From NCBI GenBank assembly GCA_016929035.1, contig JAFGJP010000022.1:1-29122 (forward strand): 29,122 nucleotides of DNA, given 5' to 3'. Position numbers and translations under genes: made by a program. Shown here piece after piece: positions 8,956 to 22,454 of the stretch. The notes beneath the pieces are model-generated. The model ran no database searches, had not been told where the DNA came from, and saw only the letters and a program-made list of their open reading frames with translations. Positions within the stretch are counted from its first letter, which is position 1. The number at the start of each line of letters is the position of its first letter. Source of the stretch: Candidatus Auribacterota bacterium (GTDB taxonomy: Bacteria; Auribacterota; JAFGBW01; JAFGJP01).

Positions 8956-9054
8956 AATGAATCTCTCCGGGCTAAAGCCTGGAGTCTTTATAAAAGACCC
9001 CGCTTCGTAACATATCGCAAAAATCCACCGTGGAATTCGCGCATCGATTAAAGA
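8956..9054. mobile_element. Non-autonomous hairpin element, IS200/IS605-end-like, copy A
   Basis: Hairpin CTCCGGGC-TAAA-GCCTGGAG; 55/66 identity of 8974-9039 to 12279-12344; no transposase. Confidence 0.55.
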
Positions 9055-12230: not shown

Positions 12231-12484
12231 AATGAACCTCCCTGGGCTTCCCTCTGAGGTGGATACGCTTAATGCGGAAAAGCCCGGGGTTTCTTTTAAA
12301 AACCCCGCTTCGTAAAATACCGCAAAAATTCACCGTGAAATTCGAAGAATTCCCGGAGGTAAGTCCTCGGAATTTCTGATGAAATTCCAGAGGGTCTACG
12401 ATATTTTTGCGACACTCAGCGGGATAATCGTCTGCGCTTTCATCTCCGGCTTTATAGGCGGGGAATTCGTGCATCGATTAAAAA
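12231..12484. mobile_element. Non-autonomous hairpin element copy B with two nested insertions
   Basis: Collinear with 8956-9054 (15/18, 55/66 and 20/22 blocks), interrupted by 30 nt (12249-12278) and 125 nt (12345-12469). Confidence 0.6.
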
Positions 12485-20100: not shown

Positions 20101-20420
20101 TTCGCAGTAGCGGCATGGACGTCCAGAAAGTCTGCAAGCTCAAAGAAGGAAGGCCGCATGTTCTTGATTACATCAAGAACCATGACATTCATTTGATCAT
20201 CAATACTCCCCAGGGCAAAGGCCCGAAAGAGGATGAAGAGCTGATCCGCTCGACAGCTGTCCTCAACAGCATTCCCTGCATCACAACGCTCAGCGGCGCC
20301 AGCGCGGCGGTCAACGGCATCGAGTATCTCAATACTCAGGAGCTGACAGTTATCAGCCTTCAGGATTATCATAAAGACAGGATAAAAGATATAAGTAAAA
20401 ACTTAAAAATAGGCTCATGA
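17157..20420 (+). CDS. carB: Carbamoyl-phosphate synthase large subunit
   Basis: GTG start; 1087 aa; [36 protein letters not shown], duplicated ATP-grasp domains, C-terminal MGS domain. Confidence 0.99.
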
Positions 20421-21202
20421 ATAAAAAAATAACATGCGGGACCAGAGCGATCATCGAGAACAGAAAGGTCGGGCAGGAGCATTTTATTCTCCGTTTCAGG
20501 TCAGCTTTTCATGAAAACGATACTGCGCCCGGCCAGTTTGTTTCTGTAAAAGTCGACAGTCCTTTAATGGTTTTAAGGCGTCCGCTGAGCGTTTTTGACA
20601 TCGAAGGAAATGAATTGTCTCTTTTTTACAAGGTTGTCGGGAGTGGAACACAGGCTCTTTCTCAGAAAAAGCCTGGTGAGAAACTGGATGTTCTGGAGGT
20701 TCTTGGGAAAGGTTTTACGATTGACGTTCAGGGCAGGTCCGTTGCCCTTGTCGGCGGCGGAATGGGCGTTGCGCCTCTTTTTTATCTTGCAAAAGTCCTT
20801 AGAAAAAGAAAAAAAGACGTCCACGTTTATCTGGGAGCACAGACGGCTAAAGAGATCTTTTTCGAGGACGGTTTTCAAAAAATGGGCTGTCATGTGTGCG
20901 TAACAACAGATGACGGGAGCAGAAATATCTGTGGCACGGTTTGCTGCGGCCTTGAGCCGGACTGTGCTAAAAAAAGTTTTCAGATGATCTATGCCTGTGG
21001 CCCGCGGTCTATGCTGAAAGCTGTCTCCTTCATTGCAGAAAAGGCAGGGATTCCCTGCGAGGTATCTCTTGAAGAGGTCATGGGGTGCGGCTTTGGAGTG
21101 TGTTTGGGATGTGCCGTGAAGGTGAAGGATAAAGAAAACCCGTATAAAATGGTTTGCAAAGACGGGCCGGTTTTTCATGCGGAAGACATTGACTGGAAGT
21201 AG
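20417..21202 (+). CDS. pyrK: Dihydroorotate dehydrogenase electron transfer subunit
   Basis: [37 protein letters not shown] and VCKDGPVF [2Fe-2S] ligands. Confidence 0.95.
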
Positions 21203-21220
21203 GCGAGAATATGCAAAAAA

Positions 21221-21475
21221 TTCAAATATACTGGAAAAATATTTCTTTGCCTGAAAAGGTTTTTCACGCCGTGAAAGCATCATTTTTTTCGGCGCCTGCC
21301 CTGAACCACAAAGGGTTCAGGGTAAACTCCAATACAAGAATCTTTCCTGTCCTGAACCGAGCGTGCTATGGTTCGGGGCTCGGCGCCCGAACTTTGTTCG
21401 GGACCCTCAAAAAATACTATTTTCAGGCTAAACCTTCTCTAATGGCTACAGAAATATTTTTCCAGTATATTTGAA
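21221..21475. mobile_element. 255-bp MITE-like / fold-back element with perfect 26-bp terminal inverted repeats
   Basis: TTCAAATATACTGGAAAAATATTTCT (21221-21246) is the exact reverse complement of 21450-21475; several internal hairpins; no clear target-site duplication. Confidence 0.75.
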
Positions 21476-21518
21476 AGGTTTTATTGATTTTTTTTAATAA
21501 TCACAGAGATAATAGAGA

Positions 21519-22454
21519 ATGATGGATATTGACTTAACTTGTGATTTGAATGGATTAAAGTTAAAGAATCCTGTTTTTACGGCTTCTGGCACATACGGGG
21601 TGGGGGAGGAGTTTAAGGATTTTTATGATGTGAATTTGCTTGGAGGCATTGTCACCAAGACGGTGACCCTTGAAAAAAGAGAAGGGAATCTGCCTCCAAG
21701 GATATGTGAGACAAGGGGAGGGATTATCAACTCCATCGGTCTTCAGAATCCTGGCGTCGAAGCGTTCGTCAAAGAAAACAAGGAGTGGCTTGAAAGCCTG
21801 AAAACAGCTGTTATCGTGAGCGTATCAGGCCGGACGGTGGATGATTATGTCAGGGTGTGCGCACGGCTGAAGGAGCGACTTCGGTTTGGTGGGGTTGAGC
21901 TGAATGTGTCATGCCCCAATGAAAGGAAGGGGGGCGTTTCTTTCGGACAGGACCCGGACGCTGTGGAGGAAATCGTCGCAAGGGTCAAAAAAGAAACGCA
22001 TCTCTTTGTCATTACCAAGCTTTCTCCCTGGACACACCTTGTCCGTGATGTCGCTTGTGCAGCTGAGGCGGCAGGATCAAACGCCCTTTCAGCCACGAAC
22101 ACGATACCGGCCATAGCCGTTGATCTAAAAACCAGGAAAAGCCGTATTGGGAACGTCACAGGAGGGCTGAGCGGGCCGGCGATAAAACCTGTTTCACAAA
22201 AGATTTTCTATGATATTATTAAAGCTGTAGAAATTCCTGTCATCGGAGTCGGCGGAATAGAGACTCCTGAGGATGCCTTGGAATACATTCTTCTCGGAGC
22301 GACGGCTGTTGAGGTAGGAAGCGCCAATATGTACAATCCGATGGCTGCAAGGGATATCCTTCAGGGCATCAGACGTTATTTATTGTCGAACAGCATGCAG
22401 GACCTTTCGTTGCTGAGAGGATGTTTGGATGAAAAACGAGATGGAAGCGAGTGA
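21519..22454 (+). CDS. pyrD: Dihydroorotate dehydrogenase family 1B catalytic subunit
   Basis: TASGT, TKTVT, NSIGLQNPG, ELNVSCPN (catalytic Cys), TKLSP, GGLSGPAIKP; partner pyrK upstream. Confidence 0.97.
   Translation: MMDIDLTCDLNGLKLKNPVFTASGTYGVGEEFKDFYDVNLLGGIVTKTVTLEKREGNLPPRICETRGGIINSIGLQNPGVEAFVKENKEWLESLKTAVIVSVSGRTVDDYVRVCARLKERLRFGGVELNVSCPNERKGGVSFGQDPDAVEEIVARVKKETHLFVITKLSPWTHLVRDVACAAEAAGSNALSATNTIPAIAVDLKTRKSRIGNVTGGLSGPAIKPVSQKIFYDIIKAVEIPVIGVGGIETPEDALEYILLGATAVEVGSANMYNPMAARDILQGIRRYLLSNSMQDLSLLRGCLDEKRDGSE

Follow-up and report, generated by a model that had tools for sequence, protein, structure and literature searches.

The fold-back element at positions 21221-21475 of the window (the complete stretch of 29,122 nucleotides that was analyzed) is interpreted here, with a probability of roughly 0.58, as a copy of an old, low-copy, lineage-restricted hairpin repeat of REPIN/MITE-like character that was inserted into the normally tight junction between pyrK and pyrD. 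The assignment as an inserted repeat element, and not as native operon sequence, is supported by related copies at nonorthologous sites. The insertion itself would have taken place at the DNA level in the lineage of the source assembly, G000 (1.97 Mb, 77% complete). The taxonomic family of G000 contains just one further genome, the sister MAG G001, a member of Candidatus Auribacterota with 93% completeness, which belongs to a different genus. The copy in the pyrK-pyrD junction, designated W, and its relatives form a previously undescribed small family of hairpin-forming noncoding repeats seen only in these two uncultured Auribacterota genomes, with the unusual trait of a conserved core combined with copy-specific paired termini. 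In this interpretation, the striking fold-back within an operon of core biosynthesis proves to be an inserted repeat instead of a native regulatory RNA, and an undescribed hairpin-repeat family is added from a phylum known solely by metagenomes. With three copies per genome, its practical significance is modest at present.

The order of the genes according to Pfam is PyrR, PyrB, PyrC, CarA, CarB, PyrK, the element, PyrD, PyrF, and ApbE, with overlaps of 4-31 nt between successive open reading frames from pyrR to pyrK. Gene order and reading frames thus bear out the sequence-only reading, which had placed the element between pyrK and pyrD in an operon whose genes overlap from pyrR through pyrK. 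On the plus strand, pyrK for the electron-transfer subunit of DHOD B (20417-21202; PF10418 and PF00175, and the open reading frame list) ends 18 nt upstream of the element, and pyrD for the catalytic subunit of dihydroorotate dehydrogenase (21519-22454; PF01180) follows a T-rich tail (21476-21518). The element parts the genes for the two subunits of a single enzyme, whose linkage is normally tight, and is a natural test case for the effects of insertions on operon expression. The T-rich tail contains a single sigma-70-like match, TTGATT-18-GATAAT at 21484-21513, which is not above the shuffle expectation and whose -10 box would put the transcription start at or beyond the ATG of pyrD. An ATG-initiated open frame for 87 aa runs across the element (21211-21474). 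That the element encodes this protein has next to no probability: the frame has no Pfam match and belongs to no protein family, it is made of hairpin arms, and it crosses an apex that is replaced or absent in other copies, for which reasons it was rejected as a gene.

The fold-back described from the letters alone is present in all its parts. Its two 26-bp arms (21221-21246 and 21450-21475) are complementary at 26/26 positions. Among the perfect inverted repeats of the 1.97-Mb assembly that have spacers of up to 400 bp, they rank first in length, the runner-up measuring 22 bp. The inner 9-bp pair GCCTGAAAA / TTTTCAGGC (21249-21257 / 21420-21428) and the dyad TTTCAC-GCC-GTGAAA (21262-21276) were found as well, and so were the three CCYGAAC..GTTCRGG hairpins (21300-21321, 21351-21377, and 21386-21402) and the octamer TCGGCGCC, repeated at 21289 and 21380. 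The 316-nt pyrK-pyrD spacer folds as RNA at -111 kcal/mol (z = -9.0) and as single-stranded DNA at -61.8 kcal/mol (z = -9.3). In 4/4 full copies, the fold of the antisense strand is more stable than that of the sense strand by 5-8 kcal/mol, and G-U and A-C cells are balanced across the copies. A Logan contig from a DNA run of the probable source sample spans 20700-22000 as a single contig with 0 differences and with neither a variant nor a joint; since this independent contig matches exactly, the fold-back is not an artifact of MAG assembly. No RNA run containing the locus was found; two metatranscriptomes from the same study do not cover the stretch and are uninformative about expression.

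The stability as single-stranded DNA, the equal or better fold of the other strand, and the rank as the longest perfect short-range palindrome of the assembly would also suit a functional site at the DNA level, that is, a cruciform or protein-binding, recombination, or replication-related palindrome. This explanation is highly improbable: a position inside an operon, nonorthologous sites, variable arms, and a replaceable apex do not speak for a fixed chromosomal site, and no recombinase or replication gene is adjacent.

Profile searches recover exactly three copies in G000, namely, W and the copies on contigs C61 and C213, with two of the three lying within 300 bp of a contig end. G001 contains one full copy (G001a, located between pyrF and apbE just past the pyrF stop codon), one 3' partial copy, and one 5' partial copy. 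For REPIN or MITE families, copy numbers in the tens to hundreds are usual. In G000, neither the complete element nor its arms have a second copy; the subterminal parts recur in C61 and C213. A covariance model (R1), seeded with the other copies and with W left out, retrieves W over its full model length (21238-21457, plus strand) with 76.4 bits and an E value of ∼1e-15. The family is lineage restricted in every collection searched. No copy was found in 77 further genomes of the phylum (79 in the covariance model search including G000 and G001), and weak covariance model matches in G028 and G020 were rejected because both lie within long open reading frames. An exact-motif scan of 185,579 species genomes returned the sister MAG and one match in a coding sequence, and the same scan of JGI metagenomes returned just four copies of one unrelated coding sequence; these coding matches are attributed to chance. 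Rfam searches with W and four other copies at permissive thresholds gave best scores of 14-27 bits against gathering thresholds of 39-128, with none of the matches on the core. The closest PyrK proteins in a collection of 5.8 billion proteins are 61-62% identical, and the 62% match is from the G001 organism. Among these PyrK relatives, one contig (L096) reaches the junction; it derives from the same organism as G001 and so supplies no nearer relative for an empty-site comparison.

Sequence conservation is concentrated in two boxes inside the arms. Both boxes are borne out by alignments and nhmmer. In W, the 5' box (21241-21277; TTTCTTTGCCTGAAAAGGTTTTTCACGCCGTGAAAG) shows 29/36 positions identical to G001a, and the 3' box (21420-21449; TTTCAGGCTAAACCTTCTCTAATGGCTNCAGAAA), the best-conserved segment of the family, shows 32/37. 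Compared with C213 and C61, 25-28 of 33-35 positions of the 5' box and 28-29 of 37 positions of the 3' box are identical. The box identities do not group the copies by genome, which indicates an old family predating or spanning the split of the two genera. Across the genera, the boxes are 81-86% identical, compared with ∼70% for the DNA of pyrK and pyrD. This difference fits selection at the level of the host no less than selection that favors mobility.

The 5' box and the reverse-complemented 3' box share the motif order TTTCT, GYC, GARAAGGTTT, and GCC(G)TGAAA. The elements are thus built as inverted doublets of a ∼35-nt unit and fold around a variable apex into long rod-like hairpins. The rod is composed of the helices P1' (GYC:GRC), P2 (10 bp), P4 (8 bp with a bulged G), and often P5 (U6:A6). 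In W, with all strands read on the plus strand, the 5' box contributes P1' GCC (21249-21251), P2 GAAAAGGTTT (21253-21262), and P4 GCC-G-TGAAA (21268-21276), and the 3' box contributes P4 TTTCAGGC (21421-21428), P2 AAACCTTCTC (21430-21439), and P1' GGC (21444-21446). P5 of W pairs TTTTTT (21283-21288) with AAAAAA (21409-21414); this helix is kept in G001a and absent from C213. The sequences of the helices vary with retention of pairing: for P1', W and C61 have GCC:GGC, G001a has GUC:GAC, and C213 has GC:GC, and for P4, W has UGAAA:UUUCA, C213 has UGAAC:GUUCA, and G001a has UGAG:CUCA. On the model-based alignment, 87% of the cells are paired, compared with 53-62% when the partners are slid by 1 column. 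Changes on both sides occur in 5 pairs, a count equalled in 5/500 shuffles; the covariation evidence is modest since the alignment has only five rows and was fitted to the structure. An alternative pairing, P1 (GCCUGAAAA:UUUUCAGGC) with a P3 dyad, can be formed in W and was rejected because it is kept worse elsewhere than P2 and P4.

Outside the boxes, both the ends and the apex are replaceable. Only the inner base of the outer stem P0 (TTTCT/AGAAA) is conserved in the family. The remainder of P0 differs from copy to copy and is still self-complementary, at 26/26 positions in W and 13/13 in C213 and imperfectly in C61 and G001a. The variable apical domain (21289-21408 in W) is occupied by a GGATGAGG...CCTCATCC hairpin in C213 and G001a, by nothing in C61, and by three REP-like hairpins in W. 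The conserved core with copy-specific paired ends would bear on the recognition of hairpin elements if the mobility of the family were studied.

The interpretation of W as a classical MITE is largely refuted and, as an explanation of W, very improbable. Such an element would derive from an insertion sequence by deletion and be moved by a DDE transposase, with the 26-bp terminal inverted repeats as its binding sites and a duplication of the target on insertion. The small size, the noncoding sequence, the perfect terminal repeats, an intergenic site that lacks a spacer in relatives, and three DDE_Tnp_1 genes in G000 speak for such an element. The arm, however, is confined to its own two positions in the genome, and conservation within the family is lowest at the termini; as P0 is different in every copy, the arms are not a conserved terminal repeat of the transposase type. 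The proposed search for a cognate transposase likewise found none linked to the family: there is no nearby transposase gene with matching ends, and no insertion sequence with ends like TTCAAATATACTGGAAAAATATTTCT was found in the assembly. What stands of the original MITE proposal is the inserted repeat with related copies at nonorthologous sites; what is not supported is a conserved terminal repeat bound by a transposase. No autonomous partner was found, and no significant target site duplication flanks W.

The three hairpins in the apex of W belong to a separate REP-like family, which makes W a composite. The consensus CCYGAACC-N6-GGTTCRGG occurs 11 times in G000, compared with 0 occurrences in five block-shuffled genomes. 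Three of the 11 hairpins lie inside W, and the other 8 are uniform 22-mers in other noncoding stretches amid other repeat modules (C14:2772, C62:1652, C68:4510, C82:4576, C144:1050, C189:1375, C285:2230, and C296:4300). A longer form, cacCCTGAACC...GGTTCAGGg, is frequent. In W, the TCGGCGCC octamers (21289-21296 and 21380-21387) flank hairpins 1 and 2 of the apex and could be marks of a nested insertion, but a direct repeat of 8 bp is near chance in 255 bp (∼0.5 expected by a rough estimate). GGCGCC is self-complementary, so the octamer pair may simply be a stem.

Among the same-phylum comparison genomes, pyrK abuts or overlaps pyrD without a spacer in G004 and G009, and G002 and G003 have a pyrD with no pyrK in front. 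In G001, the pyrK-pyrD spacer measures 329 nt and contains other repeats; its similarity to the spacer of W is not significant, with 35/200 shuffles scoring as high. Since the G001 insert is unrelated to W, the junction was filled independently in both genera. The G001 spacer (C59, reverse strand, ∼1160-1500) has its own imperfect ∼25-bp fold-back, AAAGTGTATAAAGTTAAGGAGTGC ... GCACACCTTTAACTTTAAGTACTTT, together with GC-rich hairpins (TCCCACCTCGTAGGTGGG...). The insert as a whole lies between the repeat copies ATTGGGAGTAAA / ATTGGAGTAAA (p ∼0.02), of which the left is the end of pyrK and the right carries the Shine-Dalgarno sequence of pyrD.

The remaining sites also differ between the genera. 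G001 has pyrF, the element, and apbE where G000 has pyrF, 21 nt, and apbE, and the in silico removal of the G001a insert with one flanking repeat leaves 21 nt. The orthologue of the C213 site in G001 shows other gene content and no element. In total, 0/6 copies occupy an orthologous position between the genera, and presence therefore varies between G000 and G001. These comparisons imply gains and losses of copies after the two genera had separated. The direct repeat flanking W is not significant (p ∼0.26). For G001a, the flanking repeat reaches p ∼0.008; its right member overlaps a 3' tail that is conserved in C61 too (p ∼0.01 for the conservation between C61 and G001a) and may for this reason belong to the element itself instead of representing a target duplication. 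The tail of W shows no significant similarity to that of G001a or to the tails of the other copies. The two pyr-operon copies may descend from one ancestor that was relocated by ∼1.7 kb within the operon, through either local transposition or duplication and deletion.

Inverted doublets, compensated pairing, and an opposite strand that folds equally well or better fit a REPIN-like single-stranded DNA element acted on in trans better than a MITE bound at its terminal repeats. In the preferred reading as a REPIN/MITE-like repeat, the element would accordingly move, or have moved, in the form of a single-stranded DNA hairpin acted on in trans, the most plausible enzyme being a Y1 (IS200/RAYT-type) HUH transposase of G000. 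Recognition would then proceed through the pairing and the subterminal boxes and not through the outermost arms. Y1_Tnp matches number 5 in G000 and 8 in G001, and both genomes also have a few DDE genes. In G000, all Y1 and DDE transposase genes are more than 2 kb away from the boxes and hairpins of the family, and in G001, judged by coordinates, the Y1 matches are all more than ∼30 kb from any copy. One Y1 transposase gene of G000 (C50:1914-2210) is bracketed by near-identical perfect hairpins of 18-19 bp, AAACCATATTCTTCCACCT (1692-1732 and 2422-2460); it looks IS200-like or like a RAYT with its own REP and is unrelated to the W family.

REPINs and their RAYT genes (PMC3116915) resemble the W family in the inverted doublet of a conserved short unit with a less conserved spacer that forms a long hairpin. 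Compensatory changes are common in REPIN hairpins (PMC3116915), and both systems show compensated pairing, an extragenic and noncoding location, and a long life within a lineage; Y1 HUH genes are present in G000. In contrast to the tens to hundreds of REPIN copies, the W family comprises 3 copies per genome; it also has an extra copy-specific outer stem and unrelated sequences, and no cognate RAYT gene flanked by the same repeat was found. The preferred explanation is chiefly at odds with the very low copy number and with the lack of a RAYT gene that has the unit on its flanks.

A perfect 26-bp duplex is a standard substrate of RNase III. The Correia elements (CREE/nemis) of Neisseria form hairpins in mRNAs that are bound or cut by RNase III with changes in expression (PMC2649163). 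Like W, CREE are intergenic, measure ∼100-250 bp, and have 26-bp inverted repeats; they are often cotranscribed with their neighbors, and their long and short forms differ by an internal segment, as do the members of the W family. The terminal repeats of CREE are conserved over >100 copies, the elements insert at TA with target duplication, and they occur only in Neisseria (PMC2649163). The W family differs by copy-unique arms, few copies, no demonstrable duplication, the lack of sequence similarity, and an Auribacterota host; in place of a conserved 26-bp repeat with a core, W has an arm that is unique and unrelated. Further parallels exist with modular interspersed repeats such as pneumococcal BOX (PMC3049150 for BOX and RUP), ERIC of enterobacteria, and REP/BIME mosaics, the features of ERIC and BIME being general knowledge: conserved paired end modules surround a variable or repeated middle, and the repeats lie just past genes in operons, stacked beside other repeat families, with a proposed effect on mRNA stability. 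All of these families differ from the W family in sequence and lineage and have far more copies, and the middle of W consists of hairpins of another repeat family.

The sense orientation inside the operon should place the element in the pyr mRNA, where it would form an intercistronic hairpin that breaks the translational coupling of pyrK and pyrD. In analogy to the Correia elements, the perfect duplex of 26 bp would offer RNase III a substrate. The role in RNase III cleavage and segmental mRNA stability that the sequence-only reading had offered beside the MITE is plausible by this analogy, and rnc, the gene for RNase III, is encoded in both G000 and G001.

A rival explanation treats W as a host-selected, cis-acting RNA module of 3' untranslated or intercistronic regions that serves mRNA processing, stability, or uncoupling, for example, through RNase III or a double-stranded-RNA-binding protein, with dispersal as a secondary matter. 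Such a module is unlikely, though the likeliest of the rivals. All 3 full copies with both neighbors known are in sense orientation between codirectional genes and begin 18-55 nt past a stop codon, and the partial copy G001b is likewise found behind a sense-strand gene; against the module, one partial copy is antisense relative to its neighbors, and the genes downstream of the copies are unrelated (pyrD, an epimerase, and apbE). The strong conservation of the boxes between genera whose neutral spacers do not align, the compensatory helix changes, and the rnc gene agree with an RNA function, whereas the better antisense folds of the four full copies, with G-U and A-C in balance, speak against it. 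Each genome holds one pyr-operon copy, these two being at least as similar to each other as W is to other G000 copies, and the pyrK-pyrD spacer of G001 has a fold-back of its own. Against this, the apex is freely replaceable or missing, and a family of 3 copies per genome has no Rfam relative.

A further proposal combines both aspects in a new type of mobile element defined by structure, in which the boxes and the rod would be recognized in single-stranded DNA, a Y1 HUH enzyme being one candidate. The arms would be remade with each insertion, for example, by hairpin-primed (snap-back) synthesis, and the pyr transcript would be processed in an RNase III-dependent manner. The processing site in the pyr operon enters this proposal because each genome keeps one copy there. 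Snap-back would, if true, explain termini that differ between copies and yet are self-complementary, as well as the 26/26 arms in what is presumably the youngest copy. The proposal as a whole is very improbable.

The REPIN/MITE-like family of W is accompanied by several other repeats in the source assembly. The repeat at 8956-9054 and 12231-12484 of the window was rejected as a relative of W; it represents a different family with a GGAATTCGCGCATCGATTAAA end, whose two copies in the window end at 9030-9054 and 12455-12484. The C61 copy of the W family begins ∼20 nt past the GGAATTCGCGCATCGATTAAA end of this other family (C61 85-110), so that distinct repeat families stand head to tail at this site in a BIME-like mosaic pattern. 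Upstream of the C213 copy and past the stop codon that precedes it, a separate perfect 10-bp hairpin is located at C213 62-96, GGATATTTGA-N15-TCAAATATCC; the string ATATTTGAA, common to this hairpin and the 3' arm of W, is not significant once its post hoc choice is allowed for. Perfect inverted repeats that measure 16 bp or more and have spacers of up to 400 bp number 51 in the G000 assembly. Several with spacers of 90-250 nt may be further fold-backs, among them C209:337-452, C80:4710-4939, and C176:3349-3619, and one arm, TAGCCACGAAGAACACGAAG, is part of a CACGAAG repeat. Another intergenic module, found in C276 (∼1500-1560), C238, and C322 of G000, reads AAAAACCGTAGG...CTTCG...CTCAGGATAAAC and is followed by GGGACG-type repeats.
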